Part shown: piece by piece, positions 12,328-34,999 of the stretch
Numbering within the stretch: position 1 is the first letter of the stretch
How the letters are laid out: every line of letters begins with the position of its first letter
Source: an uncultured Flavobacteriales bacterium
GTDB lineage: Bacteria; Bacteroidota; Bacteroidia; Flavobacteriales; CAJXXR01
DNA: 57,926 nucleotides
Assembly (NCBI GenBank): GCA_913063375.1
Contig: CAJXXR010000020.1
Span: 1-57,926, forward strand
Reading direction: 5' to 3'
Program-made: the position numbers and the translations under genes
Notes under the pieces: generated by a model
Seen by the model: only the letters and a program-made list of their open reading frames with translations
Told to the model about the DNA's origin: nothing
Databases searched by the model: none

Positions 12328-14058
12328 TTATTTACTGATACTCAATCTTTCTTGTTGACCAGTATTTAGATCTGTAACCTCAATGAAATAGATACTATTT
12401 TCATTCAAGCCATCTAAAGAAATAACTTTTTCATCTTGAAGCTCAACTTCCAATCTACTTACCTCTCTACCCATAATATCACTTATAGATACTCTTAGGT
12501 TTTGTAACGATCCATCATTTTCAAGATAAAGTCCCTCTTGAATATATGCCACCTCTAGAGAAGCTTGTTCCATACTTAACTTACCGAACTCATAACCACA
12601 ATACATTGCTTGCGAATAATTTTGATTTAAGTCCATCAAGTTAGGTTGATCCAAAGTGGTTCCATTTCCTAATTGATCTAAAGGATTTACTTGTGTATAA
12701 AACAATTTACTATCTGTAATAGTCATTGGATCTGTACAATCTGAATTAGTTCCAATTGCCGGAGTTCTCCACAACTTTGTATTTATAACTGATCCTACAG
12801 TACTAGTATTCTCTCCAGTAAGCAAATATAAATGACTATTCGAACTATGACGTGTAACCATTTCTGGATTATAAATAAATGGTCTGATAGCTCCTAAAGC
12901 CGTATATGGTTTGTAAACAACGTTTCCAGTTGCCGATCCATAATTGTAAAGGTTGTGCTTCAAATACTCCTTATTATATACAGTTAAGCCTCCCACTAGG
13001 TTTGCATCAACCTCCATCATATAGGCTTTATAGTTATTTGAATTATGGTTTTGATACCCTGCTACAGCAAAGGTTTGTCCCATATTTATCCACTCCAAAT
13101 CACAACCAAAATTGTTCATATTTGGACTAATATAATAATGATGCCCAGCCATTATAGCCCCTGAATTATCCAATTGAGCAATAAATGATTCATGTGTTTC
13201 CGTTTCTTGACATAAAAGGATCAATTCATTGGTGTTGGTATTTTCTATTACATCTACACCAAAAGTCCAGTGACCAGGAAAGGTTGCAATAAAAGGATTA
13301 TCCCATACAGTTCCACCACCTGTATCCAATAAGATATTTGAAACTGCCTGTGTTTCAGCGTAGTTTGGTTCTGGATAAGATTGAGATCCCGTAAGGTAAA
13401 TTTGTTCTACTCCATTAATGTTAACAAATTTCACTTTGGAAAACATATTATAAACCTCGTTACCACTCGTATTAGAAGTATAACTATTTGACCAGTTTAA
13501 GTTAAGACTTGAATTCAAATTTGCAACATAAGAATCTTTTTGTGCAGTCAACATATTCCCATTGGGATCTGCCACAAAACCACATACCGCAATATCGGCT
13601 GAACTATTTGAAAAATCTGATCCCAATAAATAAGTATCTCTTCCTGGTTCATAAACATCGGTTTGATTCAATAAATTACCGGAATTACCGTCAATTATTA
13701 AAACCTTACCTCTCATAAGTCCACCATTTAAGTAAGTCCCAACTACACTAATCTCATTACCTTTCGTTGTCACTACTGAACTTAAATGATCTTCAGGACC
13801 AAAATCATATAGTCTATCCCAAATAATAACGCCATTCAAGTCCCGTAAAGTAAGGTGGAAATCCAAATTCCCGCCTCTATCCTCTGTACTACCCGAAATA
13901 ATGTAATCTGTATCAAATTGATCAGTCACAAAATTGAAATTGGTTTCATTACCTCCAGTTGAAGGATCATCGAAGGTGTAATTCTTCACCATGACCTGCG
14001 CCATTGAGATAGTTGAACTCAAAATTGCTGCAGCAGCAATAATCGATTTAATTTTCAT
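12328..14058 (-). CDS. Secreted T9SS-cargo protein, paralogue of 9473..11203
   Basis: 576 aa, identical length, about 85% identity across signal peptide, body and CTD. Confidence 0.6.
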   Translation of the reverse strand: MKIKSIIAAAAILSSTISMAQVMVKNYTFDDPSTGGNETNFNFVTDQFDTDYIISGSTEDRGGNLDFHLTLRDLNGVIIWDRLYDFGPEDHLSSVVTTKGNEISVVGTYLNGGLMRGKVLIIDGNSGNLLNQTDVYEPGRDTYLLGSDFSNSSADIAVCGFVADPNGNMLTAQKDSYVANLNSSLNLNWSNSYTSNTSGNEVYNMFSKVKFVNINGVEQIYLTGSQSYPEPNYAETQAVSNILLDTGGGTVWDNPFIATFPGHWTFGVDVIENTNTNELILLCQETETHESFIAQLDNSGAIMAGHHYYISPNMNNFGCDLEWINMGQTFAVAGYQNHNSNNYKAYMMEVDANLVGGLTVYNKEYLKHNLYNYGSATGNVVYKPYTALGAIRPFIYNPEMVTRHSSNSHLYLLTGENTSTVGSVINTKLWRTPAIGTNSDCTDPMTITDSKLFYTQVNPLDQLGNGTTLDQPNLMDLNQNYSQAMYCGYEFGKLSMEQASLEVAYIQEGLYLENDGSLQNLRVSISDIMGREVSRLEVELQDEKVISLDGLNENSIYFIEVTDLNTGQQERLSISK

Positions 14059-16446: not shown

Positions 16447-16935
16447 ATGAAAAATCTAATCACACTACTATTTGCCACTTTACTTCTCATTGCTCCAACT
16501 GGATTGAGGGCTCAAAAAAAAGATAAAAAACCTAAGAAGGTAGAGCAAAAAGTCAAAGTAGAAAAAGAAAACAAAGGCAAAGAAAAACAAGAAAAGACCA
16601 ACAAAGGCAAAGCTTTAGGAAAAAACAAAGGAGACCTTAAAGGAAAAGAATTTGGAAAGGCAGTTTCCTCAGCTGCCAAAATAAGGAAAAACAAATTATC
16701 CAAAGCTGACGAATCCATTAATGAAATGGAAGAGAAAGGTAATCGAAACAAAAAGAAATTAAAGGAAGCAAAAAAGAAATTGGAAAAGCAGAAGAAAGAG
16801 AAAAAGGTATCCGAGAAAGAATACAAGAACAAAATGAATAAGATCCGAAACCTTGAGAACGAGATAGAGGAAATTGAAAAGAAGAGAATAAAAGCTAAGA
16901 GAAAGAAAACTACTATAGAAAAAACCTTAAAATAA
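16447..16935 (+). CDS. Secreted lysine-rich low-complexity protein (162 aa)
   Basis: Signal peptide MKNLITLLFATLLLIAPTGLRAQ followed by about 140 aa of K/E-rich coiled-coil low complexity. The antisense ORF 16512..16964 is its mirror artefact. Confidence 0.5.
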   Translation: MKNLITLLFATLLLIAPTGLRAQKKDKKPKKVEQKVKVEKENKGKEKQEKTNKGKALGKNKGDLKGKEFGKAVSSAAKIRKNKLSKADESINEMEEKGNRNKKKLKEAKKKLEKQKKEKKVSEKEYKNKMNKIRNLENEIEEIEKKRIKAKRKKTTIEKTLK

Positions 16936-17060
16936 CCTTTCGCTACCACCGTAAAAGAGTACAATTAATTTTGTACTCTTTTTTTTTGAATAGCAAGAAT
17001 GGACAACTTGAAATTGTGAATTATGCCTACATTTACCCAAATACTAATCTACAAATAAGC

Positions 17061-17978
17061 ATGGATAACCAATTGCAACAAACCTATATTCAAGGCTTAA
17101 ATAAGGCTCTAATTTTCATTGACAACAATTTAAATAAGCCATTGACACTGGAACAAATTGCAGAAACAAGCAATTATTCACCCTACCACTTTCACCGTAT
17201 TTTCAAAGCCATCACAGGCGAAACGCTCAATAATTACATTAATAGACTTCGCATAGAAAAAATAGCCTCTATATTAATGCGCGTAAAAACAATTCCACTA
17301 GAGCAATTAGCTATAGACTACGGATTCAATAGTGGCTCATCACTATCCAGATCTTTCAAAAAATTCTATGGGATCAGCCCTTCTAGATTTAGAGATATGA
17401 GCAACGAACAGTTTAGCAAGATCCGTCAAACAGAAAGCAAGAATGGACAAGAAAAAATAAGCTTCGAACAATACATTTGCAACATTACTAATCTAAACAA
17501 CTGGATAAAGATGAATGCAAATATCGAAGTAAAAGAGCTGCCAAAAATAGAACTAGCCTATGTAAATCACCAAGGACCCTTTGATCAAATTGGAGTTGCC
17601 TACGGACAACTTATGCAATGGGCAGGTCCACAAGGATTAATGAGTAACCCCAACACAAAAACCTTAACTATCTACCACGATGATCCTAAAGTAACGGATA
17701 CCGCCCTACTAAGACAAAGCGCTTGCATTACATTACATCAAGAAATAAAAACTTCTGGAGCCATTGGAAAAAGAACTATCTCAAAAGGGAAATTTGCTAT
17801 TGGTAGGTTTGAAATAAATTTTGAAGAATTTGAACAATCTTGGAATGGCATGTTCCTTTGGATTACCGAAAAAGGATACCAAACTAGAGATGGTGAATAT
17901 TTTGAAATGTACCATAATAATTTCAATGACCATCCGGAGAAAAAGTGCATCGTTGATATTTGTATTCCTATTATATAA
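17061..17978 (+). CDS. AraC-family transcriptional regulator with C-terminal GyrI-like effector-binding domain
   Basis: AraC HTH (YSPYHFHRIFKAITGETLNNYINRLRIEKIA, SLSRSFKKFYGISPSRFR) followed by a GyrI-like domain (KELPKIELAYVNHQGPFDQIG...). Start taken at MDNQLQQTY (Met31 of the track ORF). Confidence 0.75.
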   Translation: MDNQLQQTYIQGLNKALIFIDNNLNKPLTLEQIAETSNYSPYHFHRIFKAITGETLNNYINRLRIEKIASILMRVKTIPLEQLAIDYGFNSGSSLSRSFKKFYGISPSRFRDMSNEQFSKIRQTESKNGQEKISFEQYICNITNLNNWIKMNANIEVKELPKIELAYVNHQGPFDQIGVAYGQLMQWAGPQGLMSNPNTKTLTIYHDDPKVTDTALLRQSACITLHQEIKTSGAIGKRTISKGKFAIGRFEINFEEFEQSWNGMFLWITEKGYQTRDGEYFEMYHNNFNDHPEKKCIVDICIPII

Positions 17979-18075: not shown

Positions 18076-21000
18076 CTATTTCTGAGACAGTACATTTCTA
18101 ATACCATCCAATCCTTCTGTTACAGATTCTATCTGAGAAACAATCATAGCCATTTGATTGTCTCCACCAAAACCTTTTAATTTTTGATTCTTTAAGAAAG
18201 TTCTTTTGATAGCTTCCCAACGAGTCATCTCCGTCGGTTCAATCCATCCAACCAATTCTTTAAACTTCAACAAATTTGCTTCCGCACTTGTTGTAAGCGT
18301 TTGAGATTCGTTTTCATAGGCACTTAGCACAAGCGTCTTTAATTCCTTTTCATTCATTATAGGAATAATCTTCTCTGCTATCTTATTCATATTTCTATAA
18401 GATCCTTGAAGCTTAAAAGAAGGCTCCTCTCTATATTGATCCTCCATGGCTGCAGACTTGATATACTGCATATTCACTTTCAATATGATATCACGTACCT
18501 GAATCAAATGTTTCAATACTGCAACATAATCATTGATCTCTTCTACAGTATGATTGGATTCAAAGGAAATTCCCTCTTGACTATCTGTTGTTGCCAGTTT
18601 AATAAGCGCATATAAATCCTTCTGACTTTTACCAGACAAATTGCGAAGGGTAGAATTTGAAGTCAAACAATTCTCTATATAACTACTCTTAAATACATCG
18701 GCACTGTCCCCGATGATATCCCCTAAATTGTAAATATCAGCTCTATTCGCCAACATATCTGGAATCTGAAACTTATCTCCACTTTCCGTATATGGGTTCC
18801 CAGCCATTACTACACAAACCTTCTTTCCACGAAGATCGTACGTCTTACTTTGCCCCTTGAACACACCTTCAATCTTTCTTTGCCCATCACTCAAGGAAAT
18901 AAACTTCTGCAGAAATTCTGGATTACAATGTTGAATATCATCCAAATAAATCATGATATTATCCCCCATTTCAAATCCTAAATTCAATTTCTCAATCTCC
19001 TCCCTTGCTCCAGCATTTGGTGCACTTTCAGGATCCAAAGAAGTTGTCTCATAGCCCAAGGAAGGCCCATTTATCTTTAAGAAAATCACCCCCAATCGAC
19101 TGGCGATATACTCCATTAAAGTAGTTTTCCCATATCCGGGAGGAGATATCAATAAAAGCATTCCCATTAAATCAGTTCGCTTATTAGCTCCAGCTGTCCC
19201 AATCTGTTTGGCTAGATTATCCCCTATTAATGGCAGGTACACCTTATTGATCAACTTATTTCGAACAAAAGAGCTCATTACCTTTGGCTTCAATTCATCC
19301 AATTTCAAATCCAGCTTATAACGATCTATAAAACTCTTTTTCAAAGTCTTAAATTGATTAAAAGCCGGAACTTCATTCAGCACAAACCCAAGCAACCTCT
19401 TTTTATAATCTTGATAATCCAGGTTTAATTTCTGCTTCTGAATCAAGGAATGTGTTCCATTTAGACCGTCAAGATCCATTTTCAACTCAGTATCGATCAA
19501 ATGCCTTTTATCTGGCCCTGACGTCAACAGCAACATGGAGGCTTCTGAAATTAAATCCTCACTTGTTGGAGTATGAGATTCTGAGTAAGCCTTCAACCAA
19601 CTTTTGGTAATGGAATATTTTGACGAGGCTTTTACCAAGTTTTTAGTCGATTCCTCAAAGCTGGTTTTCAATTTATTTTTATTCAAATAATTTGTAAAAG
19701 CTTCACATAGATCAAAGGCTTCCTTACCAATACTAAAGCTATCATCTGAGGCCAATTCTGTAAATAGATACTTCGATACCTCCACAATATCCGCTTCAGT
19801 AAAAATACCTTCCTCAAGAATAAATTCACCAATTTCCTCACTCAAATCATGAATGAGGTCATCAAATACTTTTGTATTAGGGAAAGCTTTCAAAATATTT
19901 CCTATTCCCTTTATTTGATGATTTAAAATAGAACTCTTATCAGCATCAATAAACAGATTCCAATAAAAGGAAGCACAAGCTCTTGCCGTAGAAGAGTACT
20001 TCAAGACTCCACCCAAATGACCTATCTGCAACAAGGCCTTTACAATAATCAAAGCATCCAAATCATGAACACCTTTTACATAACCTTCGTCATACCTAGG
20101 AGCCATCGTCTCCTCAATCAATTGCAACAAGGCTTCATCGGTTCCTTCCAGCCATTCCGAAAGGCTTTGCGTACCTTTTTCTATAACCTGCAACACCAAC
20201 CAAGCTAAGTACTCAGCACGGTAAATATTTTCATTTTCAGAGACCAAGCCCTGCTTCCATACAGGTCTAGTTCTTAAGAAATCAGGATCTACAATCTGCT
20301 CAAAAAAATTGGTCCCTGTAATATGGTAATACATCTCATTATTCCTTGGAACAATAGACAGATCCAGGAGTTGATTGTTGACAGAAAACTGATGTTTCCC
20401 AAAGGATATAATTCCATCTCCTTGATAAAGTTCTGACTTATCTCTAAGTTGTCTTATAGCTTCTTCATGCGTAGACTTCAACTTACTCTGGATATTATCC
20501 GACTTTACGGTATCACCTAGTTCAACCAGGTCTTTGATAATATTCCTAAGTTTATCAACCATTAGGTCTGATGCCAAATACCCATTGATAGCATTTACAT
20601 CCTTCATTCCAGATAGACGAGTATGAATCCCCTTAATTATTCTTTCAGCAGAAAATTCTAACTGGGCAGTTTTTTTATTTCGTCTTTCTGTAAGTTGAAC
20701 TTTACGAGACTCAAATGCATTGTAGACTTCTTCTCTTTTTTCTGAGATCTTATTCAAAAAGGAATCAAATTCACCAAACTTACCTTCCAACTCTTCGAGC
20801 TGAATCAATAATTTCGTCAAATACTCTTCACATTTCTCAGCTGTATCTGAGATATCCAAATAATTAACCGCACCCTGACCAATCAGCTTCAATTGAGAAT
20901 GGAAAACAGCCTCTCCCTCTGTCAATTGTAAATCCTTCCTTTTTCTCTTTAGGACGGAATTGATCTGATTAAAACGGGCATAGATGGCAGAAATATTATT

Positions 21001-22959
21001 GATAATCTTGGTTGTTTGTGTCGCATCTTCAATTTTCAGATTACTCACAATTTCAATCAACATTTCCAATTCCTGCGAAGTCGTCATCACCTGTTCCTCG
21101 AGGGTATTCACCTCGATGACCTTAGCCAGTTCTTCAACAGCATTATTGAAGCCATCTATTTTCTCCTCATAATAATGTAAAGACCTTGGCTCCAGCAAAT
21201 ATTTCACACACTTATTGGATACATCCTCATTGTGTTTAGTCATCTCCACCTCATGACTTGCAATCAGATCTAGATCTACATATCTAAGATCTTTTAAAGA
21301 AATAACTTCACCTCGAATGGTACGGAGCTCAGCTAAAATTGTCACAAATTCATCAATATGGTCACTCTTCGCAACCTTTATTCTACTGATTAGTTTCTTG
21401 AACTTCTCTGTAAAATCATATTGCTTATCAGCTGTATTCTTTTTAACCTTTACAACCTTATCAAATTCATCTATAGCAAGTGAAGCCGATGATTTTATCT
21501 CTAATAAAGGTTCAGATAATCTATTAGTTTCTTCATCTGCCAACCAATAATAGCTATCAGTAATATCTGTAGTTTTTTTGACTAGATCGAGATAAAGGTT
21601 ATCGTAACTATCTTCTTTTTGAATAAGATTCAAGACCTCATGACATTCCGCCATCGCCCGAACTATATCCTTATTTCCAATTTTACTCAATAGGGATGAG
21701 CTATCTGGATGCAATGTAAAAGATCCCTCTTCAAAGGGTGTTTTCCAAATTTGAACAGCATGATGACTTTGCGCTTCCTCTTCACCTTTGAAAAAGCACA
21801 ATTCACCATTACTAAACAACGAATACCCATGACATACCGTTGGTGTATTCACCTGTTGAGAAATCAAATTATAGGAAAGCAGCACATAAACCCCTGTTTC
21901 ATTATTATTGAAAATATACAAGAAATCTTCCCCATTTGGAGAGGCTAGCATTCGCTGGTACTGCATGGTACCAACCTCAAGGTCAAAGATTTTATACTCC
22001 CCCGTTTGCAAATAATACCCTTGGGAAAAAATCACACCATGATCATCAGGAAGCAAAACACAAGATTGTGCTATTGCATCCACGCGCATAGCTTCTGAAG
22101 CTTTTCTATTGTAAATAATATACCTGAATTCACTTTCCTTATAAGGTTTGATCTTCAAGAATATCATATTGGCAACTACAGCATAATACATTTCCGCATC
22201 ATCCAAAGTTTGATCCTGATAAACTACAGGTTCACTATAAATACCTTTGCCAATTTCTGTATTATCCTCAACCTTTATAGTTAAGTCCCCACCTATAGCT
22301 TCAACAAATATTAGATCTTCAATTGATACATGAGGATGCAAACCATCGCGGTACATGTCCCTAGTGGTTCTTTTCCAAGTAAACTCATATTGATTGGGAT
22401 AGACTACCTCATGACTACTTCTATTATCTATATAATCAATACCATTTTCAGCAACCCTCCACTTAAAAGCTTTAATATCGCTTTCAGCTTTCCCAATTTT
22501 AAAAACCAGATATAAAAAGGGTCCTATTTCAACAAACTTAGTAAACTGAGTTTCCTTATAATATTTATAGAGTTCATTAAAGTCTTCTAGGAACTTCTCA
22601 CTTCCAAGCAAGGACTCATCCTGCTGATGAAAGTTGTGATCCTTATATTCATAAACGCTAAACACGTCTTCCAACTTGGTTCCAGTCCTTAGACCAATAT
22701 GAACATTGTACCCGAAAATAAATCTATCTCCTATAGAAATCATATCTCTAGGAATACACTTATTGGCCGTAGTAACCCTTTCTGTAGAAATTAGGGTAGT
22801 CTCTACAGCGCCAAATAAATTCTTCCTAGAAGTATTTAAGCCTGCTAATCTATCTTGAAGTTCTTTCCCCTGCTTTAATAAACGACTTCGAATGATTTCA
22901 TAAGTCCCTTGCTCCAAAACGGAAGTTCCTCCTTCTGAAGCTTCGTTCAGATCCTTCAT
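18076..22959 (-). CDS. Giant (1627 aa) orphan protein with a MoxR/AAA_5-type ATPase domain near the C-terminus
   Basis: Walker A LISPPGYGKTTL (about residue 1277), Walker B IMIYLDDIQHCNPEFLQKFISL and sensor-1 VCVVMAGNPYT match the MoxR/dynein-related AAA_5 pattern. The ~1250 N-terminal residues have no recognisable motif (mixed alpha and beta). Last gene of the PspA-NfeD-flotillin cluster. Confidence 0.8.
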   Translation of the reverse strand: MKDLNEASEGGTSVLEQGTYEIIRSRLLKQGKELQDRLAGLNTSRKNLFGAVETTLISTERVTTANKCIPRDMISIGDRFIFGYNVHIGLRTGTKLEDVFSVYEYKDHNFHQQDESLLGSEKFLEDFNELYKYYKETQFTKFVEIGPFLYLVFKIGKAESDIKAFKWRVAENGIDYIDNRSSHEVVYPNQYEFTWKRTTRDMYRDGLHPHVSIEDLIFVEAIGGDLTIKVEDNTEIGKGIYSEPVVYQDQTLDDAEMYYAVVANMIFLKIKPYKESEFRYIIYNRKASEAMRVDAIAQSCVLLPDDHGVIFSQGYYLQTGEYKIFDLEVGTMQYQRMLASPNGEDFLYIFNNNETGVYVLLSYNLISQQVNTPTVCHGYSLFSNGELCFFKGEEEAQSHHAVQIWKTPFEEGSFTLHPDSSSLLSKIGNKDIVRAMAECHEVLNLIQKEDSYDNLYLDLVKKTTDITDSYYWLADEETNRLSEPLLEIKSSASLAIDEFDKVVKVKKNTADKQYDFTEKFKKLISRIKVAKSDHIDEFVTILAELRTIRGEVISLKDLRYVDLDLIASHEVEMTKHNEDVSNKCVKYLLEPRSLHYYEEKIDGFNNAVEELAKVIEVNTLEEQVMTTSQELEMLIEIVSNLKIEDATQTTKIINNISAIYARFNQINSVLKRKRKDLQLTEGEAVFHSQLKLIGQGAVNYLDISDTAEKCEEYLTKLLIQLEELEGKFGEFDSFLNKISEKREEVYNAFESRKVQLTERRNKKTAQLEFSAERIIKGIHTRLSGMKDVNAINGYLASDLMVDKLRNIIKDLVELGDTVKSDNIQSKLKSTHEEAIRQLRDKSELYQGDGIISFGKHQFSVNNQLLDLSIVPRNNEMYYHITGTNFFEQIVDPDFLRTRPVWKQGLVSENENIYRAEYLAWLVLQVIEKGTQSLSEWLEGTDEALLQLIEETMAPRYDEGYVKGVHDLDALIIVKALLQIGHLGGVLKYSSTARACASFYWNLFIDADKSSILNHQIKGIGNILKAFPNTKVFDDLIHDLSEEIGEFILEEGIFTEADIVEVSKYLFTELASDDSFSIGKEAFDLCEAFTNYLNKNKLKTSFEESTKNLVKASSKYSITKSWLKAYSESHTPTSEDLISEASMLLLTSGPDKRHLIDTELKMDLDGLNGTHSLIQKQKLNLDYQDYKKRLLGFVLNEVPAFNQFKTLKKSFIDRYKLDLKLDELKPKVMSSFVRNKLINKVYLPLIGDNLAKQIGTAGANKRTDLMGMLLLISPPGYGKTTLMEYIASRLGVIFLKINGPSLGYETTSLDPESAPNAGAREEIEKLNLGFEMGDNIMIYLDDIQHCNPEFLQKFISLSDGQRKIEGVFKGQSKTYDLRGKKVCVVMAGNPYTESGDKFQIPDMLANRADIYNLGDIIGDSADVFKSSYIENCLTSNSTLRNLSGKSQKDLYALIKLATTDSQEGISFESNHTVEEINDYVAVLKHLIQVRDIILKVNMQYIKSAAMEDQYREEPSFKLQGSYRNMNKIAEKIIPIMNEKELKTLVLSAYENESQTLTTSAEANLLKFKELVGWIEPTEMTRWEAIKRTFLKNQKLKGFGGDNQMAMIVSQIESVTEGLDGIRNVLSQK

Positions 22960-23072: not shown

Positions 23073-25163
23073 TTAGTTTTGAATGCCTAAAGCACTTGGC
23101 GTGATATCTCCAATTCCAGCAGACTTAACAGCCGACATAAGATCATTCAGCACACCAGTAGTAGAAGTGTTATTGTTTTCTTGCATCATTCTAAACACAA
23201 TAGTAGAAATAGACAAGTTTTTCAAATCTTCTGAACTAATCCCAAATTGATCAATTAGACTTCTAATTTTTTCATTCAAATTTCTCCCGTCTACTTCGTC
23301 TAACAATTGCCCTTTCAATTCAGTCAATATTGCACTATTATTGATGGTTCTCTCTACACGTTTTCCGTTAGATATCGCACCAATAATTTTATCAAAGAAT
23401 ACAGCTTCTCCACCAACAATATCAATTTTGGCAGTTCTCAACGCTGTAGAAAGCACATCAGCTTGAGCATCCGCAATATCCTTTTGAATATGTATTTGAG
23501 CCAATTCAACTTGCTTTTGCATGTCCAATTCTAGCTTAAACTCTTCATGTTCTTTTCCAACACCATCCAACTGCTTCATTGCATCTGCTTTTCTGTGGAT
23601 CCCGTCAGCTTCTACATGGTATTTTTCTTTACTTACAGCGGCTTCTGCAAGTCCTTTCTTCTCATCAGCAATTGCTTTCAATTCAATTACCTGAGCTTCC
23701 GCATTACCCATTTCAACATCAGCCTTAGCTTGTGCTGATTGTGTTAATTCAATTGCTTTTGCTTCTGCAATAGCTTTCGCCTCCAGTATTTGCGCCTCTG
23801 CAATTCCTGAAGCTGCTTCATTTGCAACAGTGGCTTCTGCCATCACCTTGATTGCTTCTGATCTTTGAACAGAAGATTCCTGCTCTGCCTTGGCATCAAT
23901 CATGATTTGTTCAGCTTTAAACTCAGAAGATTTTTTACCGGCTTCCGCAGCTTTTATTTGTTGAACTAAATTAGCCTCGGCCAGCTCTTCGGCTTTAGTT
24001 ACAGCAACCAATTTTTCACGATCCGCTTGAGATTTAGTCTTAGTATCTTTGATGCTTTCCTCTTCAATAACAACCGTTTTTTCAATCGAAACACGCTCTC
24101 TAATTACCTCTTGAATACTTTTCTTCTCTTCTTCAATGGCCTTTTCTTTGGCAATTTGAGCAAGCGTTACTATTCTTTCTCTTTCCGTTACCTCCAACAA
24201 TCTATCCTTTTCAACCTTTTCAGTTTCAACGGCAGCGGTTCTCTCTTTATTTTTAGCAGCAACAATAACCTCTCTTTCCTTGTTTTGTTCTGCTATCTCT
24301 ATCTCTTCCGAAGCAATAATACGAGCCCTTTCAGACTTTAACCTTTCCTCTTCTACAACTTTAGCAATTTCCGCTTCTTCTCTAGATTTGATATTGGCAA
24401 CTTCCCTTTTTTGCTTTTCTTCAGTCTCGGCCAATTGTTTTTCCAATTGCAGAATAGCTTCCCTAGCTTCAACATCTTGTTTTGTAATGGTCTTCTCCTT
24501 ATTCTTTTCAATTTGATTGGATTCAATTTTTTCACGAGACGTGATTTGAATAATCTTCTTAATACCTTCAGCATCTAGAATATTATTTTGATCCATCTTG
24601 AACAAAGGTGTTTGCTCCAAATAATCAATGGCAGCATCATCCAAGATATACCCATTAAGATCTGTACCCAAACTATTTAGAATTTCCTCTCTAAAGGCAT
24701 CACGCTTATTGTATAGATCTACAAAGTCGAATTTTTTACCTACTGTTTTCAAGGCCTCTGAAAACTTTGAATCAAACAAATCATTCAATGACGCAGCATG
24801 CGAAGCCCTTGCACATCCTACAGATTGAGCTACTTGAATAACATCCTGAGCTGTTTTATTTACACGTACAAAAAACACAACCTTAATATCAGCACGCATA
24901 TTATCCTTACATACTAATCCATCAGAACCTTGACGCTCTATTAGAATATTTTTCAAGGAGATATCCATCACCTCCAATTTATGAAGGACAGGTACTACCA
25001 TCATTCCATTAAAGGATACTTTCGTACCTCCAACTCCCGTTCGAACTAGTGACTGTCCCTGAGACGTTTTTTTGTACCATTTAGCAACCATTCCGATGAC
25101 TCCCAACAATACGAGAACCAAAATTATTGTAACCATAAAAGTTGCATTTTGTAACATTTCCAT
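23073..25163 (-). CDS. Flotillin-like SPFH (band-7) domain protein
   Basis: N-terminal TM anchor, an SPFH core, then a long Glu/Ala/Lys-rich coiled-coil flotillin domain. 696 aa, like FloT/YqiK. Confidence 0.85.
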   Translation of the reverse strand: MEMLQNATFMVTIILVLVLLGVIGMVAKWYKKTSQGQSLVRTGVGGTKVSFNGMMVVPVLHKLEVMDISLKNILIERQGSDGLVCKDNMRADIKVVFFVRVNKTAQDVIQVAQSVGCARASHAASLNDLFDSKFSEALKTVGKKFDFVDLYNKRDAFREEILNSLGTDLNGYILDDAAIDYLEQTPLFKMDQNNILDAEGIKKIIQITSREKIESNQIEKNKEKTITKQDVEAREAILQLEKQLAETEEKQKREVANIKSREEAEIAKVVEEERLKSERARIIASEEIEIAEQNKEREVIVAAKNKERTAAVETEKVEKDRLLEVTERERIVTLAQIAKEKAIEEEKKSIQEVIRERVSIEKTVVIEEESIKDTKTKSQADREKLVAVTKAEELAEANLVQQIKAAEAGKKSSEFKAEQIMIDAKAEQESSVQRSEAIKVMAEATVANEAASGIAEAQILEAKAIAEAKAIELTQSAQAKADVEMGNAEAQVIELKAIADEKKGLAEAAVSKEKYHVEADGIHRKADAMKQLDGVGKEHEEFKLELDMQKQVELAQIHIQKDIADAQADVLSTALRTAKIDIVGGEAVFFDKIIGAISNGKRVERTINNSAILTELKGQLLDEVDGRNLNEKIRSLIDQFGISSEDLKNLSISTIVFRMMQENNNTSTTGVLNDLMSAVKSAGIGDITPSALGIQN

Positions 25164-25203: not shown

Positions 25204-25860
25204 TTAATCCAATGTTTCGTAAGCCTCTACAATGTAAAATTGAGATTCCTTAATATGGTTTACCACCAATATTCTATCTCCCCTTTTCACTTGACCTTCT
25301 GTAGTTTTGATATTTATTCGATAATTTGAACCAGAGATGATCATCTCTCCTTGCCCCATTCTTGTACTATTGGCAGAAACCACGACATATCCTACTGCCC
25401 CAACCAAATCCTGAACTTCATCAGCATCCTTATCCAACAATGCAAATATCTTAACAAATGGATAGGTCACTGGCTTTGCGACCAACAGACTCACAATAAA
25501 AATGGGCAACAATAATAAGAGTGAAAATAAGAAAGAACCATTTCCCAACATATGATTTACCGTTACAGACAAAAGCCACATCGGAATTACCAAAAAGGTT
25601 AGAAAAACCATTAAAGGTATTTTATCAATATTGAAAAAGGACAGGACATTATTTAACCAGGATACTGAAATATCAGGATTTCCATCACCTTCCACTTCGG
25701 CATCCACTTCAACCTCTGCCTCCATTTCAATCTCTATATCAAATGTGCTGATATCCAATGCTCCGAATATTACAAGCAGCCAATAAAAGATTATAAATAC
25801 CAGCAATGCAGTTGGTATGAAATTTACCGCAGAAAAAGCGGCATGAAAAAGTTCCATCAT
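25204..25860 (-). CDS. NfeD-like membrane protein (short form, C-terminal OB-fold)
   Basis: Hydrophobic N-terminal half with 3-4 TM segments and an acidic EIEMEAEVEVDAEVEGD insert. The C-terminal beta-barrel (GQGEMIISGSNYRINIKTTEGQVKRGDRILVV) resembles YuaF/NfeD partners of flotillins. Located 40 nt upstream of the flotillin gene. Confidence 0.55.
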   Translation of the reverse strand: MMELFHAAFSAVNFIPTALLVFIIFYWLLVIFGALDISTFDIEIEMEAEVEVDAEVEGDGNPDISVSWLNNVLSFFNIDKIPLMVFLTFLVIPMWLLSVTVNHMLGNGSFLFSLLLLLPIFIVSLLVAKPVTYPFVKIFALLDKDADEVQDLVGAVGYVVVSANSTRMGQGEMIISGSNYRINIKTTEGQVKRGDRILVVNHIKESQFYIVEAYETLD

Positions 25861-25919: not shown

Positions 25920-26618
25920 TTATTTATTCAATCCCATTTTGGCTTTAAGGGCTGCCAAACTAGTAGCCGCATTTAATTCCTTGAGAGTCGTGTCAATTTC
26001 AACGCGTACCAGTTCATCAGAATCATTCAATTGAGCATATCCCTCAGCACTTGCTTCTTCCTGCAGTACTTTATCTTTCATTCTCTCCAACATGGCAATG
26101 GTACCAGATGAATCTATTTGCGCTATGTCTTTATTCAATTCTTTGGTAGTGGAAGCAACTACGGCACGTGCCCTCAATGTTTTCAATTCAGAATCCCATT
26201 GATCAACATTTAACTTCACTCGGCTAATATTGGCATTAAGCTGGGACAATGATGCATCAATCTTTTGCTTGTTCTTAGATGACTCCTTACTAAATTGTAT
26301 CTGCTCTTCTCGAAGAATCAATGCCTGGGTCGCCAACCAGTCAGCTTGCTCTTTATCCAAATCTCCATTCTTAGCACGTTCCAAAAGAATGCTAGCCTTT
26401 TCTTCATAATCTTTAGCCTTTGCAAGAAATTTTTCATGCTCATTCCTAGCTCTAATAGACATCGCCTTTACTTCTGCAAATGCTTTAAGGTGACTCTCTA
26501 AATGATTTTTCATATCTCTAATTCCTTGCTCCATAAGTTTAATTGGATCCTCCAATTTATCGATTGCAGAATGGGATTCTGCTTCACCAATCTTAAATAA
26601 ACGTTTTAAAAAATTCAT
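25920..26618 (-). CDS. PspA/IM30 (Vipp1, ESCRT-III-like) family protein, paralogue 1
   Basis: 232 aa coiled-coil protein. N-terminus MNFLKRLFKIGEAESHSAIDKLEDPIKLMEQGIRDMKNHL is collinear with PspA. First gene of the cluster. Confidence 0.85.
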   Translation of the reverse strand: MNFLKRLFKIGEAESHSAIDKLEDPIKLMEQGIRDMKNHLESHLKAFAEVKAMSIRARNEHEKFLAKAKDYEEKASILLERAKNGDLDKEQADWLATQALILREEQIQFSKESSKNKQKIDASLSQLNANISRVKLNVDQWDSELKTLRARAVVASTTKELNKDIAQIDSSGTIAMLERMKDKVLQEEASAEGYAQLNDSDELVRVEIDTTLKELNAATSLAALKAKMGLNK

Positions 26619-27172
26619 TATTTAACTAGTATTGATTCCCTGAATTAAAATAAATTAAGTAGAATACATTAAAAAATAACAACCCTATGAACCTTAGAGG
26701 AGCATGGTTAAAATCCATACACAATTATACTATTATTTTTAGCCATTTCCAAAAAATACAACGTGTTTTTATAACAAAATTGATATATAATTCAAAAACA
26801 AAACGGCTTATCCACATAAAACACAGGACAAACAAAGAATAACACACTCAAAACTAATAAATTATATAAAAACTAAAAATACCAGCACCAAGCATACTAA
26901 TATTATTAGCAATAAATACAATTTGTATTTATCTTTCCCCACTATATTTGTACATTTGATCTTCATTAACAAACAGATTATTAAAGGGCAATAAATATCA
27001 ATTATTCAAAATATAATTGTTCTGATTAAAAAAAAGGTTTTTATTGCATTGATGATTATCTACAATCCCTAAAAAGATAATCTAAACCACAGATTATTAA
27101 ATAAATACATCAATTTCAAAGGTGTATTTATAACATATGAAGTTTTATACTTCTAAAGAATAAATAAGCAAA

Positions 27173-28714
27173 TTGAAAAAAAGTCAATCTAGAATACTAA
27201 AATTAGCACTTTTCGCCACAGGACTATCTGGGATAGTTGCTGAATATATTTTATCCACCCTTGCCACCTACTTCCTTGGAGATTCTGTATTCCAATGGAC
27301 CATGATCCTTTCCATCATGTTATTTTCCATGGGGCTTGGAGCTAGGCTTAGCATGAAATTCAAAACCAATATTTTAGAAAAATTTCTAATTGCTGAATTT
27401 CTACTAACCCTTCTTACTTCAACTGCCGCCCTAACTACCTATTTCTTTATGGGGCATGCTGAAAATCTGGGATTCATCATATACAGCTTCTGTATTAGTA
27501 TTGGCCTTTTGATAGGTATGGAAATCCCACTGGTAACTAGGGTTAATGAAGAAAATGAAGAACTAAGAACCAATATTGCAGGTGTATTAGAAAACGACTA
27601 TTATGGAAGTTTGATAGGTGGTTTATTCTTTGTATTCATTGGTCTTCCTTATTTAGGCCTTACCCACACGCCATTTATTTTGGGTACCATCAACTTCCTA
27701 GTAGCCATATTACTTTTCATCAAACTAAAAGATCATATTGCTAAAAGGTTCAAAATTGGCTTTGCCATCACCATTCCAAGTTTAATAATTATACTAAGCT
27801 TCCTTAGCTATAATGCAGATGAGATAGTTCTATACGGGGAGCAAAAAAGATACAATGACAAGGTTGTTTTCTCTAAACAAACCAAATACCAAAAAATCAC
27901 AATCACCCAATGGCAAGAAAATTACTGGCTATACCTTAATTCCAGCAAACAACTTTGCACGTTTGATGAGTGGCTTTACCATGAACCACTGGTACATCCA
28001 GTAATGAAACTAACAACACACCCTAAGCATGTATTAATCCTAGGCGCAGGAGATGGTTGCGCAATCCGAGAGGTATTGAAATACGAAAATGTTGAAAAAA
28101 TCACCCTCGTAGACATTGATCCTGAGATGACCAAAATTGGTAGGTCCAACGAAATTTTCGTTAAGATGAACGACAGCGCCTATTACGATCCCAAAGTAAC
28201 GGTTATCAATCAGGACGCATTCCAATTTCTAGAAAATAATGAAGAATTTTACGATGTCATGATCCTAGATTTCCCTGATCCAAAAAGCATTGATATCAAC
28301 AGAGTTTATACCAAGGAATTTTACACCCTCTGCAACAAAAGACTTCGCCCATTGGGACATATCATTACCCAAGCCGTAAGCCCATATTATACAACAAAAG
28401 CCTTTAGGTCCATTGAAAAAACATTAGCTGCCTCTGGATTCAATACACTTCCAATTCACAACCACGTATACTCTTTTGGCGAGTGGGGATGGGTAATAGG
28501 TTCCAAATTCCAAGATAAGGAGAAAATGAAACAGCATCTACTGAAATCCAATTATCAAGATTTAGATGTACAATGGATCACCAATGAATCCATTAATCTT
28601 ATGACCTCCTTTGGCAAAGACCTTATCAAAGCAGATGACATAGAAGTAAACACCATTCATAACCCTGTCTTATACCGCTATTACCTAGACGGAACTTGGG
28701 CTAGATACCTGTAA
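27173..28714 (+). CDS. Membrane-anchored spermidine synthase-like aminopropyltransferase (paralogue 1)
   Basis: About 200 aa with ~7 TM helices, then a Spermine_synth domain (VLILGAGDGCAIREVL, TLVDIDPEMT, ILDFPDP). Confidence 0.75.
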   Translation: MKKSQSRILKLALFATGLSGIVAEYILSTLATYFLGDSVFQWTMILSIMLFSMGLGARLSMKFKTNILEKFLIAEFLLTLLTSTAALTTYFFMGHAENLGFIIYSFCISIGLLIGMEIPLVTRVNEENEELRTNIAGVLENDYYGSLIGGLFFVFIGLPYLGLTHTPFILGTINFLVAILLFIKLKDHIAKRFKIGFAITIPSLIIILSFLSYNADEIVLYGEQKRYNDKVVFSKQTKYQKITITQWQENYWLYLNSSKQLCTFDEWLYHEPLVHPVMKLTTHPKHVLILGAGDGCAIREVLKYENVEKITLVDIDPEMTKIGRSNEIFVKMNDSAYYDPKVTVINQDAFQFLENNEEFYDVMILDFPDPKSIDINRVYTKEFYTLCNKRLRPLGHIITQAVSPYYTTKAFRSIEKTLAASGFNTLPIHNHVYSFGEWGWVIGSKFQDKEKMKQHLLKSNYQDLDVQWITNESINLMTSFGKDLIKADDIEVNTIHNPVLYRYYLDGTWARYL

Positions 28715-28717
28715 TCT

Positions 28718-29797
28718 ATGTGGCTATTTAGCAGAAAAAAAGACTTTGGTATTCTGTACTTACCAGTATGGATAATCTGGATACTCCTATTCCTTCTTCC
28801 CAACGCAACACTCCATAGTGAACTTCCATTATGGGTTTGGGTCGTATTCATATTAGGAATAGATGTAAGCCATGTATGGAGCACTATTTTTAGAACCTAT
28901 TTTGACAAGCAAGAATTTAAGAGACACAAAACCATTTTAATTCTAGCCCCGATTTTTGCATTCATTATCCTGTTAGGAATTGCGCTAGAATCTTCTTTAT
29001 ACTTTTGGAGGACATTGGCTTATTTAGCGGTTTTCCACTTCATGAAACAACAATATGGGTTTTTCGCACTCTACAGTGCTAAAACAAAATCTTTTAACAA
29101 ACATAGATTTCTCAATGATAAATGGGTTCTCTACACCAGTATGCTATTCCCGGTACTATTCTGGCATTTCACCGACCGAAATTTTGACTGGTTCCTAGCT
29201 GGTGATTTCTTCTCTTTCAACTACCAACTAAGTGAGCAATTACAAAATGTACTAATCATTGCCTACTGGGGGATTTTACTAGCTTGGTTTATCGAAGAGA
29301 TTCACTTAATCAAAACAAAAGCAATAAAGCTATCATATGGGAGGATGTTATGGATGGGAACCACAGCTTTCAATTGGTTTCTAGGAATTATTTGGTTCAA
29401 CTCTGATGTTGCATTTACGCTAACCAATGTAGTTGCACACGGCATCCCTTATATCGCATTGATAATCATTTATCAAAATGCAAAAAGAAGCACAAAGAAT
29501 ACACTTCTTTATAAAAATGCATTTATTACTGGAGCAAGTATTTTGGTCTTTTCCTTCCTTTTTGCATTTTCTGAAGAATATCTTTGGGATATGTTTCTAA
29601 ACCGTGAAAAAACTGCATTTTTCAACAGTATTTTCCAGTATAGATTTGATAGTCTTACCAATGAAAAACTACAGTCCCTACTGCTAGTCACACTATCATT
29701 ACCACAGGTTACACATTATATCTTGGACGGATTTATTTGGAAAATGAATGACTCCAATCCACATCTTAAAAATATTTTAACAAAAGGAAATGGATAG
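28718..29797 (+). CDS. Polytopic membrane protein with conserved His clusters, function unknown
   Basis: 359 aa, 8 or more TM segments, recurrent His motifs (HVWSTIF, FHFMKQQYG, HGIPY). Starts 3 nt after the stop of 27173..28714 and overlaps the next gene by 8 nt. Confidence 0.55.
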   Translation: MWLFSRKKDFGILYLPVWIIWILLFLLPNATLHSELPLWVWVVFILGIDVSHVWSTIFRTYFDKQEFKRHKTILILAPIFAFIILLGIALESSLYFWRTLAYLAVFHFMKQQYGFFALYSAKTKSFNKHRFLNDKWVLYTSMLFPVLFWHFTDRNFDWFLAGDFFSFNYQLSEQLQNVLIIAYWGILLAWFIEEIHLIKTKAIKLSYGRMLWMGTTAFNWFLGIIWFNSDVAFTLTNVVAHGIPYIALIIIYQNAKRSTKNTLLYKNAFITGASILVFSFLFAFSEEYLWDMFLNREKTAFFNSIFQYRFDSLTNEKLQSLLLVTLSLPQVTHYILDGFIWKMNDSNPHLKNILTKGNG

Positions 29798-31301
29798 AAG
29801 AATGTTCTTAAAGTTAAGCGGAGGATTACTTTTCCTATCTGCTTGTGACAATGATTTTACCCAAAAATCTAAATTGAAAAATACTAGATTTAAAATCCAC
29901 ATCGACTCCAATGATAAAATTGGACACTTGGTACGATCTGCCGTCCAACTACCAATTTCAAGTACCATCAAAACAGAGACATTAATTGTAGGGGCAGGAA
30001 TATCTGGACTATCTGCTGCATGCACATTAAAGTCAAATGACTTTCAACTGTGTGAATTGAATCCAAACTTAGGCGGAACCTCAAGTGCCGTATCTATCCA
30101 TGGGAATTTATATTCACAAGGCGCCCATTACGATTTAGCCTATCCTAGCAATTATGGGAAGGATGGCTTAGAACTACTAGAACAGTTAAACGTTATCCAG
30201 TTTAACAGCACTAAAAACCTTTGGGAATTCAAAGACAAACAATACTTGATCTCTTCAAAAAATGAAGAAGCTTGTTATGATAACGGGAAATTGAGGGCTT
30301 CCATTTTAGAAGATTCCGAATTAAAGAAAAACTTTCTATCCTTAATAAAAGAATACGATAATCAATTCCCCCTACCAAGTACAGCGATCTCATCAGAATT
30401 ACATCATTTAGATCATATTTCTTTTGAAGACTACCTTAGGAAGTATCTACCTATTGACAATCATTTCCTTGAAGCAATTGACTATCAAATGTTGGATGAT
30501 TATGGAGCCGCAAGTAAACAAATATCTGCTCTTGCAGGTATCCATTACTATAAATGCCGCCCCTATTACAACCATCAGGAAATTGAACTATTTTCGCCAC
30601 AAAAAGGAAATTACTACTTCATAGAAAAGATGGTTGAGCAACTTCCTGAAGAAAACATTAACAGCAACCATTTAGTATTTAAGATTGAGCAAGAAGGAGC
30701 CAAATGGAAAGCAGACGTATTGGATGTTTTAAACATGTCAAGAAAACAATTCATTGTAGACAAATTGATTTATGCAGGACAAAAGCACGTTTTAAAATAT
30801 GCTCACCCTTCCTCATATCAAGAATTCAGTGACATAGATTATGCACCTTGGATTGTCATAAATTTAGAATTGGACGACTCACTACTTGACGGAAGTAAAT
30901 GGCAAAATGACTTTTTATCTCCCAATAGATCATTCCTAGGATTTGTTGATTCAAAAAATCAAGACAATACAAACACTCGAGTATTAACAGCCTACCACTG
31001 CTTCCCGGACATACACCACTTTATTGTTCAAAATATTTCAACCCATGCAGAAGACTTGGTAAACGAAACAATCAACAACATATCCCTATACTTTAAAAGA
31101 GATATTAGCCCAATGGTAAAACAAGTCCATGTAAAACTATTGGGACACGCCATGCCAATTCCGAAATTGGGTTACTTAACCAAGCAAAGAGTATTGGAAA
31201 AGGATGGTTTAGCATTTGCAGGGGCTGACACGGGAAGATTACCACTTATGTTCGATGCAATGGATTCTGGAATACAGGCCAGCAAATCGCTCGAAATATA
31301 A
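29790..31301 (+). CDS. Tat-exported FAD-dependent amine-oxidase-family lipoprotein
   Basis: Twin-arginine motif DRRMFLK plus lipobox LSAC. Dinucleotide fold VGAGISGLSAAC...LNPNLGGT, typical of flavin amine oxidase and protoporphyrinogen-oxidase-like enzymes. Confidence 0.6.
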   Translation: MDRRMFLKLSGGLLFLSACDNDFTQKSKLKNTRFKIHIDSNDKIGHLVRSAVQLPISSTIKTETLIVGAGISGLSAACTLKSNDFQLCELNPNLGGTSSAVSIHGNLYSQGAHYDLAYPSNYGKDGLELLEQLNVIQFNSTKNLWEFKDKQYLISSKNEEACYDNGKLRASILEDSELKKNFLSLIKEYDNQFPLPSTAISSELHHLDHISFEDYLRKYLPIDNHFLEAIDYQMLDDYGAASKQISALAGIHYYKCRPYYNHQEIELFSPQKGNYYFIEKMVEQLPEENINSNHLVFKIEQEGAKWKADVLDVLNMSRKQFIVDKLIYAGQKHVLKYAHPSSYQEFSDIDYAPWIVINLELDDSLLDGSKWQNDFLSPNRSFLGFVDSKNQDNTNTRVLTAYHCFPDIHHFIVQNISTHAEDLVNETINNISLYFKRDISPMVKQVHVKLLGHAMPIPKLGYLTKQRVLEKDGLAFAGADTGRLPLMFDAMDSGIQASKSLEI

Positions 31302-32843
31302 CTAATACAAATCCCAATTACCATCTAAATAGTAACGGTACAGTACTGGAGAATTTATAGTATTTACTTCCACCTTAGAGGTGTCAAACAAGGGTTTTCC
31401 AAAAGAAGTAATCAACTGAATAGACTCCCTATTCAACCATTTATTATTCAAATAGCTATAATCAGATTGACGCATTATATCAATCATTTTATCTTTAGTT
31501 AGACGCTTACTACCAATTATCCAACCCCATTCCCCTAAGGTCAAAACCTGATTATGCATCGGTAATGTATGGAATCCGGAAGATGACATTGTAGTCTCTA
31601 TGCACTTAAAAGCCTTAGTAGCATAATAGGGACTTCCAGCTTGGGTAATGATATGACCATTTGGGCGCAATAAACGATAAGCCATCTGATAAAATTCCTG
31701 CGTATACAACTTATTCAAATCGATACTTTTGGCATCAGGTAGATCAACAATTATTAAGTCAAAATAAGTTTCACACTGCTCTAAATATTTAAACCCATCC
31801 TGATTTAATATAGCAACCTTCGGATTAAAAAGGGCTGAATCATTATACTGTGTTAAGCCTTTAAAATCCATTCCTATTCGAGTCATTGCAGGGTCCAAAT
31901 CCACCAAGGTGATTTGATCCACATCCTCGTATTTTAAAAGCTCCTTCACATTAAAGCCATCTCCACCACCAATTATTAGAACGTCCTTATGCTCTGGAGT
32001 CAATGCAACTACTGGATGTACCATCGGCTCATGGTACAAAAACTCATCGAAGGTACTTAGTTGTTGATTTCCATTTATAAACAACCAATAATGCTCCTTC
32101 CATTGGGTAATGGTTATTTTCTGATAAGGAGTTTGCTCCGTGTATACAATCTTATCTTTATACCTAGATTGCTCACCAAACAGAACTACCTTTTCTGAAA
32201 GCGAAAATCCAACCATCAACAACAAACTAATGAAAAAGGAAACAGAATAAACCCACTTTTTTAATTGCGGATAATAGGACTTATAGTTCCAATACAATAA
32301 GACTGCAACAGTAAAATTTAAGGCACCGAAGGCGAATGCTGTATTGGTAATACCCAAGTATGGAAGACCAAAAAAGGCAAATGACAATCCCCCTATCAAA
32401 CTACCAATATAATCCCAAGACATAATATTGGATATATTCTTATCCAAACTTTCATGCTTCTCATTCAAGCGTGTTACTAGCGGGATTTCAAAACCAATAC
32501 AAACACCAATCAATAAGGCCAAACCATAAATTAGAATATGGATGAAATTGGTTGCTGAAGCTAAAGAGTAAACAACTAAAGGAGAAAAACTTATTAATAA
32601 TGATAAGGCAAATTCAACTGCAATAAAAGTGGCCAACAAATCTTTTGTCACAAATCGACTTAGACGACTCCCCACCCCCATTGCAAACAACATAATAGAC
32701 AAAACAACTGTCCATTGTATAATAGTATCACCTATAAAATAAGAGGCAAGGGTAGATAAAATAAATTCAGAAGTAAAGCCAGAAATTCCTGTGGCAAAAA
32801 TGGCCAACTTCAACCAAGTACCCTTGTCGATTTTAAACTGCAT
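31302..32843 (-). CDS. Membrane-anchored spermidine synthase-like aminopropyltransferase (paralogue 2)
   Basis: 513 aa, same architecture as 27173..28714 (VLIIGGGDGFNVKELL, TLVDLDPAMT, IVDLPDA). Its stop codon abuts the stop of the convergent FAD-oxidase gene (TAACTA). Confidence 0.75.
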   Translation of the reverse strand: MQFKIDKGTWLKLAIFATGISGFTSEFILSTLASYFIGDTIIQWTVVLSIMLFAMGVGSRLSRFVTKDLLATFIAVEFALSLLISFSPLVVYSLASATNFIHILIYGLALLIGVCIGFEIPLVTRLNEKHESLDKNISNIMSWDYIGSLIGGLSFAFFGLPYLGITNTAFAFGALNFTVAVLLYWNYKSYYPQLKKWVYSVSFFISLLLMVGFSLSEKVVLFGEQSRYKDKIVYTEQTPYQKITITQWKEHYWLFINGNQQLSTFDEFLYHEPMVHPVVALTPEHKDVLIIGGGDGFNVKELLKYEDVDQITLVDLDPAMTRIGMDFKGLTQYNDSALFNPKVAILNQDGFKYLEQCETYFDLIIVDLPDAKSIDLNKLYTQEFYQMAYRLLRPNGHIITQAGSPYYATKAFKCIETTMSSSGFHTLPMHNQVLTLGEWGWIIGSKRLTKDKMIDIMRQSDYSYLNNKWLNRESIQLITSFGKPLFDTSKVEVNTINSPVLYRYYLDGNWDLY

Positions 32844-32860
32844 TCAAGTAGAATTTAAGC

Positions 32861-33751: not shown

Positions 33752-33759
33752 TTAGGGAA

Positions 33760-34458: not shown

Positions 34459-34465
34459 CTATGTT

Positions 34466-34996: not shown

Positions 34997-34999
34997 AAT

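Follow-up and report, generated by a model that had tools for sequence, protein, structure and literature searches.

A widespread DUF3686-DUF7902-AAA+ protein encoded next to flotillin: a candidate MoxR-class remodeller

Introduction

What might a bacterium do with a soluble protein of 1627 amino acids that carries a single ATPase module near its C-terminal end? The question is raised by a gene at positions 18076..22959 (minus strand) of contig CAJXXR010000020.1 from an uncultured Flavobacteriales bacterium (GenBank assembly GCA_913063375.1). The whole stretch analysed here, which we call the window, is 57,926 nucleotides long. The original prediction, made from the letters of the window, had regarded the protein as an architectural orphan, with about 1250 unassigned residues ahead of an AAA_5 domain, and as a possible member of a new family of scaffold-bound ATPases. 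We find that the protein belongs to a known and widespread family, computationally described and experimentally uncharacterised, and that its architecture is not new. Its gene stands next to that of a flotillin. We give roughly an even chance to the reading that the ATPase remodels the flotillin scaffold as a MoxR-class enzyme that carries its substrate adaptor in cis, on the same chain.

Results

Reading frame and family

The reading frame runs through 1627 codons without interruption and contains no rival open reading frame (ORF) of 80 amino acids or more. Its translation is a DUF3686-DUF7902-AAA+ protein by Pfam. The Walker A motif GYGKTT occupies residues 1275-1280 (19120-19137), the Walker B motif YLDDIQ residues 1338-1343 (18931-18948), PEFLQ residues 1347-1351 and the sensor-1 motif MAGNP residues 1385-1389 (18793-18807), all on the minus strand. 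Frame and motifs thus lie exactly where they had been placed from the letters. The accompanying statement that there is no second ATPase module, vWA domain, zinc finger or transmembrane (TM) segment held as well when examined by Pfam, motif scan, hydropathy and AlphaFold. The 1627-residue protein has no second P-loop motif, no CxxC motif, no Pfam match to a vWA domain and no TM segment (the top 19-residue Kyte-Doolittle mean is 1.54), and the AlphaFold secondary structure contains no second alpha/beta ATPase core at residues 845-1250.

The observation was accurate for the reading frame and motifs, and the claim of orphanhood was wrong. Pfam assigns residues 33-471 to DUF3686 (PF12458; E=4.2e-182; score 606 bits, cut-off 25; aligned to model positions 1-448 of 448) and residues 593-675 to DUF7902 (PF25472; E=4.2e-25), so that the 1250 residues cannot be called unassigned. 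A word-indexed search scored 8000 candidates, of which 5281 were homologues at E<=1e-5. The 120 homologues listed are 1623-1848 amino acids long, 53-71% identical to the window protein and share its Pfam string; the nearest relatives among the matches listed come from Bacteroidota. An exhaustive search with residues 1-1200 recovered at least 1364 cluster representatives at 50% identity (433 at E<=1e-30), and full-length members (1550-1930 amino acids) align collinearly down to about 27% identity.

Scanning one genome per GTDB species returned at least 600 stretches, and 592 of those 600 were confirmed as relatives, from Bacteroidota, Planctomycetota, Verrucomicrobiota, Kiritimatiellota and Desulfobacterales. 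Further members were found in Vibrio, Streptacidiphilus, Pseudomonas, Lysobacter and Neisseria, and on replicons of Proteus, Halomonas, Streptomyces, Nonomuraea and Deinococcus. The family spans at least eight phyla, including Pseudomonadota, Actinomycetota and Deinococcota. Megaplasmids or chromids carry the flotillin-ATPase module in several phyla (L086, the plasmid pQBR103; L087, Deinococcus pDEGR-1; plasmid matches H1-H13), which suggests horizontal spread.

Length varies among the homologues. Those from Planctomycetota, Verrucomicrobiota and Desulfobacterales are longer (about 1750-1980 amino acids) than those from Bacteroidota (1608-1700). In the longer group (L007, L018, L020, L022-L023, L025, L027, L029, L032, L034-L035, L042 and others) the ORFs run 100-350 codons beyond the aligned region, an apparent C-terminal extension. 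No pspA could be recognised upstream at these loci; at L035 and L042 a PspA-like ORF lies downstream instead.

Homologues are named 'DNA repair ATPase' by NCBI and sometimes 'MoxR-like ATPase' by the Joint Genome Institute. The case for a DNA repair ATPase is the label itself, which recurs in the Pfam description of DUF3686 ('ATPase involved in DNA repair'), in the NCBI name and in the annotation of PA14_16190 (PMC8855297). Pfam and NCBIfam identify no DNA-binding, nuclease or SMC/Rad50-type ABC feature, and the single P-loop is of the AAA+ type. The neighbourhoods inspected hold no conserved repair-gene partner, the conserved neighbours being membrane proteins; recJ lies two genes further on in Pseudomonas aeruginosa and was not recovered in other phyla. 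The literature that we found mentioning the family contains no functional data. Literature searches returned no papers on DUF3686 or PF12458, and PA3728 or PA14_16190 appears only in lists and annotations. We suspect that the name was derived from coiled-coil resemblance to SbcC/SMC-type clusters of orthologous groups, and we consider a repair function extremely improbable.

Domain anatomy and conservation

Two AlphaFold2 models calculated on 70-sequence alignments cover the whole protein, with mean predicted local distance difference test scores of 83.9 and 83.8. The protein begins with a long helix (residues 17-49). Next comes a beta-rich domain, with about 26 strands, at residues 55-406; helix and domain both overlap DUF3686, which maps to 21547..22863 (minus strand). 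The beta-rich domain is predicted to be a divergent beta-propeller of six or seven blades. It is followed by an all-helical rod of spectrin-like three-helix bundles at residues 472-845 (20425..21546, minus strand; residues 423-845 by AlphaFold), within which DUF7902 lies at 20935-21183 (minus strand). Residues 846-1253 (19201..20424, minus strand), delimited by AlphaFold and the conservation profile, have no Pfam match. AlphaFold divides them into a small beta domain (845-888), an all-helical part (914-1145), a beta-hairpin (1160-1181) and long linker helices (1182-1253). The AAA+ alpha/beta core occupies residues 1254-1411 (18727..19200, minus strand; 1268-1411 by AlphaFold). Besides the three nucleotide-binding motifs it includes the loop LGY..TSLDP (1301-1310), the segment PDMLANRAD (1400-1408) and a predicted pre-sensor-1 beta-hairpin at about 1362-1375, just ahead of the sensor-1 strand. 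A lid and a C-terminal helical region, again delimited by AlphaFold and conservation, complete the chain (residues 1412-1627; 18079..18726, minus strand). The N-terminal 1250 residues had no PDB sequence match, whether a single sequence or a 70-sequence profile was used. The N-terminal domains are catalogued and functionally uncharacterised, and do not form a well-characterised array with an assigned function.

A conservation profile was calculated from 69 distant full-length homologues of 29-50% identity. The most conserved block spans residues 1226-1440 and takes in Walker A, the LGY..TSLDP loop after strand beta2, DDIQH, MAGNPYT and PDMLANRAD. The loop itself (1301-1310) is nearly invariant. 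That the ATPase motifs and the post-beta2 loop are the best conserved parts of the protein points to a working enzyme. The second most conserved block, at about 1500-1560, follows the pattern SA..YR.EPsF.LQGSYRnM; judging by its resemblance to the MoxR 'GxSxR' motif, it probably carries the sensor-2 arginine (R1522). Residues 1000-1225 are poorly conserved.

Placement of the AAA+ module

By sequence, the core (residues 1268-1391) matches PF00004 with E=2.1e-8 and 35.1 bits and AAA_5 with E=4.9e-6 and 27.0 bits (cut-off 22). The AAA_5 assignment of the original prediction was partly right: PF00004 outscores AAA_5, while both pass their cut-offs and the predicted fold is MoxR-like. In the models the fold lies nearest to MoxR members, and the pre-sensor-1 beta-hairpin is predicted to be present. 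The closest structural relatives of the modelled module are CbbQ and NorQ (PDB 6l1q, 9qh4), at 13-15% sequence identity. In the helix-2 region the models predict that a short helix is joined to alpha2 by a conserved loop of 15 residues (LGY..TSLDP..AP), without a hairpin. The classical clade (FtsH, Vps4) is not the nearest in this modelled comparison. The Walker B motif departs from the canonical hhhhDE, reading YLDDIQ with DD in place of DE.

Known MoxR ATPases rely on a separate vWA adaptor. No vWA partner gene was found in four Pfam-annotated neighbourhoods, nor a vWA domain in the protein, and this fits an adaptor fused in cis.

Four other assignments were considered and rejected. The sequence has one P-loop motif, and the two models that cover the protein show one alpha/beta core, which leaves no second, degenerate AAA module; a multi-AAA chain of the dynein or midasin type was dismissed on the same two observations. 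An SMC/Rad50/SbcC-type ATPase was discarded since there is no Pfam or NCBIfam match, the sole P-loop (at 1275) lies in an AAA+ fold and membrane proteins are encoded alongside. Likewise rejected was an array of the BrxC or dynamin kind.

The operon in the window

The ATPase gene belongs to a group of four genes on the minus strand, which are separated, from pspA on, by gaps of 59, 40 and 113 nt. Directly upstream of it, at 23073..25163, lies the gene of a YqiK-type flotillin of 696 amino acids, which comprises an N-terminal TM helix (residues 1-31 give a TM-like window), an SPFH domain, a coiled coil and a flotillin C-terminus. A profile of 23 orthologues matched Escherichia coli YqiK at an hhalign probability of 100% (E=3.6e-41). 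The 'KIDIVGGE' block of the flotillin seems, by eye, equivalent to 'IKIIQVDG' of YqiK. Beyond this block, some 100 conserved C-terminal residues form a tail that does not align to YqiK; we speculate that it might be a docking site. Pfam gives no match for this flotillin, Band_7 and Flot included, with the limit relaxed to E<=10, and sequence searches of the PDB gave none either; comparison of profiles with E. coli YqiK was what identified it. The flotillin subfamily of Bacteroidota and the Planctomycetota-Verrucomicrobiota-Chlamydiota (PVC) phyla is an annotation blind spot.

The next gene (25204..25860) encodes a protein of 218 amino acids resembling YqiJ and YuaF (short NfeD). It contains three hydrophobic segments, and its C-terminal domain is OB-like. 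It matched E. coli YqiJ at an hhalign probability of 95% (E=2.5e-8) and Bacillus subtilis YuaF (2k14) weakly in the PDB, and had no Pfam match even at E<=10. By hydropathy the ATPase is soluble and the flotillin and YqiJ-like partners are membrane-anchored. The first gene of the cluster (25920..26618) encodes a PspA/IM30 protein of 232 amino acids, bacterial ESCRT-III-like (PspA_IM30, E=4.1e-30 by Pfam). The 554-nt gap upstream of it (26619-27172) contains only ORFs of at most 51 amino acids; neither a CesT/Tir-like ORF nor a divergent XRE/S24 regulator is present there. The best sigma-70-like match (10/12) lies at 26752-26724 on the minus strand. Overall, promoter and terminator counts did not exceed those in shuffled sequence, which leaves the scan without information on the operon boundaries.

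The expectation of a scaffold-bound ATPase from a new family can be divided accordingly: the gene does adjoin that of a flotillin scaffold protein, and the family, with two Pfam entries and an NCBI name, existed already.

Flotillin is the conserved partner

ORFs were called at the loci of 82 relatives and searched with the window proteins; counts are restricted to loci with enough upstream sequence, and the sample, drawn as the 80 best matches, leans toward Bacteroidota and the PVC phyla. In 60 of 62 loci the gene directly upstream of the ATPase, on the same strand, encodes a flotillin homologue, with gaps mostly below 250 nt; a YqiJ-like gene was found in 52 of 59. PspA (25 of 58 loci), a CesT/Tir-like gene (22 of 58) and an XRE/S24-type regulator (23 of 58) were seen upstream in Bacteroidota-type loci only. 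Flotillin, not PspA, is the conserved partner.

The triad of flotillin, YqiJ-like protein and ATPase was also seen elsewhere. In Streptacidiphilus the Band_7 flotillin matched our profile at an hhalign E of 1e-130, in Vibrio chagasii the flotillin profile match reached E=2e-25, and on the Pseudomonas fluorescens megaplasmid pQBR103 the gene is annotated 'SPFH domain-containing protein'. In Deinococcus grandis (pDEGR-1) the triad was recognised by the size and position of its genes only. What we observe is family membership, the order of the domains, a predicted fold like that of MoxR and, across phyla, a gene that almost obligately adjoins flotillin.

These counts bear on two other explanations. 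In one, the ATPase would be a Vps4 analogue that disassembles or recycles PspA polymers. The pspA gene heads the cluster in the window and also occurs in P. aeruginosa and on pQBR103, as well as in the 25 loci counted above; an ESCRT-III/Vps4 analogy for PspA-linked AAA+ proteins is drawn in the part of Ravi et al. that treats them (PMC11237479). With flotillin as the partner that is kept, we think there is only a small chance that PspA is the substrate.

In the other, the ATPase would be a client-directed MoxR chaperone, which matures a membrane client held by flotillin and NfeD, inserts a cofactor into it or extracts it, much as CbbQ and NorQ act on Rubisco and nitric-oxide reductase. That CbbQ and NorQ are the nearest structural relatives of the module speaks for this, as does the view that flotillins organise or stabilise other membrane proteins. 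The relevant section of Ravi et al. likewise proposes a part in assembling membrane-linked complexes (PMC11237479). No conserved fourth partner was found between flotillin and ATPase or downstream; ORFs in the gap and downstream form no conserved families, apart from sporadic small ones (TerB-like, DUF4178-like). The four annotated neighbourhoods also contain no vWA adaptor, and the only invariant neighbours are the flotillin and the YqiJ-like protein. We regard a client chaperone as unlikely.

The Pseudomonas aeruginosa bac operon

Over its full length, the P. aeruginosa homologue (P0291) shares 41% identity with the window protein; it has the same Pfam string and is 119 residues longer. Its gene stands in the order DUF2170, PspA, 213-residue protein, 688-residue protein, ATPase, phospholipase D (PLD)-family protein, YaeQ, RecJ, M4 peptidase. 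By gene order this locus matches bacABCDEF (PA3732-PA3727), with the ATPase in the position of BacE (PA3728/PA14_16190). The PA numbers are ones that we take from the gene order and from lasB presumably being PA3724, not from an accession.

In strain PA14 all six bac genes are co-transcribed by reverse transcription PCR, and in a bacA mutant the BacB to BacF proteins are raised 6- to 13-fold (Wallart et al. 2024, PMC10948618). BacD is the SPFH protein PaFlo3 and BacC a short NfeD (PMC13086221). The bac operon shares with the window PspA, a short NfeD/YqiJ-like protein, an SPFH/flotillin protein and the ATPase. It differs in beginning with the DUF2170, CesT/Tir-like BacA and in ending with the PLD-family BacF, both of which the window lacks.

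Genes of this kind at the edges of the operon suggested a further explanation, a membrane-acting conflict or defence module (abortive infection, or attack on lipid or nucleic acid through the PLD enzyme) in which the ATPase would be the sensor or the activator. In several Bacteroidota and in P. aeruginosa the operon is bordered by a PLD-superfamily gene and an XRE/S24-type regulator, genes for RNA ligase, HipA and TelA occur close to the Vibrio operon, and megaplasmid carriage and a patchy distribution across phyla would also suit such a module. The PADLOC models, however, matched none of the three partner proteins and the ATPase only marginally (mad8, E=0.0037, over the AAA core). The 90%-identity cluster of the P. 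aeruginosa homologue holds 3222 member sequences, and the SPFH gene adjacent to it is reported as core genome (PMC13086221). The window itself has neither a PLD nor an XRE gene beside the operon. A defence function thus seems very unlikely to us.

The operon is not new to the literature. Ravi et al. (mSystems 2024, PMC11237479), in the passages on PspA/flotillin operons, describe computationally a 'Betapropeller+Coiled-coil+AAA-ATPase' protein, state that abbreviated flotillin-YqiJ-ATPase operons are more widespread, and propose a chaperone-like part in assembling sub-membrane complexes; their Table S3 includes the neighbourhood of Dokdonia donghaensis ANH61663.1 as an example. Their work is purely computational, and the description of the protein given there leaves the AAA+ clade unassigned, whereas here the predicted fold is placed beside MoxR. 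To this description we add the MoxR placement, the quantified linkage to flotillin over PspA, the conserved DD in Walker B and the link to the bacE position in P. aeruginosa.

Discussion

We propose that the ATPase would be the ATP-driven part of a three-gene membrane module, made up of the YqiJ/NfeD-like protein, the YqiK-type flotillin and the ATPase itself, which PspA would extend in the window. The C-terminal MoxR-class modules may come together in a ring, as those of CbbQ and NorQ do, and from each subunit a long spectrin-like helical arm with the propeller at its end would project. The propeller could dock on the flotillin oligomer at the membrane's inner face or on a client that flotillin holds. 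ATP turnover in the ring would then pull on or re-arrange the flotillin assembly, with the outcome that flotillin cages are assembled, disassembled or turned over during envelope stress. Propeller and arm would act in cis as the separate vWA adaptor does for ordinary MoxR ATPases. By analogy, this would follow the logic of midasin, in which a ring, a long linker and a substrate-binding head work together. Ring formation, the contact between propeller and flotillin, and remodelling as the output are the steps that we infer.

Several points weigh against a remodeller of flotillin. The propeller was assigned from weak Foldseek matches, and PDB sequence searches with the single sequence or the 70-sequence profile found nothing beyond a P-loop stretch of 38 residues shared with p97 and similar proteins. 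The DD of Walker B is kept in at least 90% of the 69 distant homologues; with DD and not DE, the enzyme may be a slow switch and not a motor. The contact with flotillin is something that we infer from gene order only, and flotillin is missing upstream in 2 of the 62 loci (L011, L030). Deletion of PaFlo3 lowered biofilm by only about 20% (PMC13086221), a small effect indicating that any phenotype is subtle in laboratory conditions. In the literature that we found there are no functional data on the ATPase from any species.

Taken further, the family could supply what bacterial SPFH/flotillin cages still lack, an energy-dependent remodeller, flotillin's own Vps4, whose adaptor would open the flotillin dome, extract subunits from it or recycle it in envelope stress. 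This extension is tentative, and we would sooner expect it to fail than to hold. We know of no dedicated ATPase that has been characterised for bacterial flotillin/SPFH scaffolds. A test of the flotillin link would offer an experimental handle on how the SPFH scaffolds of bacteria come together, open and are recycled, and on the membrane-stress biology of flotillin and PspA. P. aeruginosa is a suitable starting point, since the bac operon influences biofilm and virulence in that species. The family is large and flotillin-adjacent, yet its public label is 'DNA repair ATPase', and correcting this label would be worthwhile.

Other genes in the window

The operon sits in an island of about 19 kb devoted to membrane stress and polyamines, whose remaining genes lie at 27173-37125. 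A second PspA gene (E=4.4e-45) is found at 36403-37125 on the minus strand. A 7TM+spermidine-synthase-like gene at 31302-32843 (minus strand) has a 53% identical paralogue at 27173-28714 (plus strand). The minus strand of the island also encodes an ion channel, a DUF4178 protein, a 232-residue protein without a family and a tandem-DUF350 protein, and the plus strand a 359-residue protein without a family and an amine oxidase. The two PspA contexts set out in the corresponding part of Ravi et al. (PMC11237479) thus occur side by side in the window. On pQBR103, too, PspA, DUF2491, DUF350 and glutathionylspermidine synthase genes are joined to the flotillin-ATPase genes.

On the other side of the operon, the plus strand encodes at 16971-17978 a regulator of the AraC type that has a GyrI-like effector domain, and this gene runs toward the 3' end of the ATPase gene. 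Immediately upstream of the regulator, in the region 16447-17978, two ORFs without a convincing family match overlap on opposite strands (16447-16935, plus; 16512-16964, minus), and either may be the real one. Further away, at 9473-11203 and 12328-14058 on the minus strand, two ORFs of 576 amino acids without Pfam match lie about 1.1 kb apart and are 84% identical to each other.

Comparison with known AAA+ systems

CbbQ and NorQ are proteins of about 260 amino acids with the separate vWA partners CbbO and NorD. The window protein differs from them in some 1250 residues fused N-terminally to the module, in having no vWA partner that we could see, and in the DD of its Walker B motif. Midasin/Rea1 and dynein carry six AAA modules per chain, whereas the window protein has one and would need to oligomerise; the domain order is also reversed, with the head at the N-terminus. 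HflK/C with FtsH, and ESCRT-III with Vps4, are precedents for an AAA+ machine that works with an SPFH scaffold or an ESCRT-III-like polymer. The window protein has neither the protease domain and TM anchor nor the MIT domain of FtsH and Vps4. As in these two systems, it is accompanied by a scaffold or polymer partner, and both kinds are encoded in the operon of the window.

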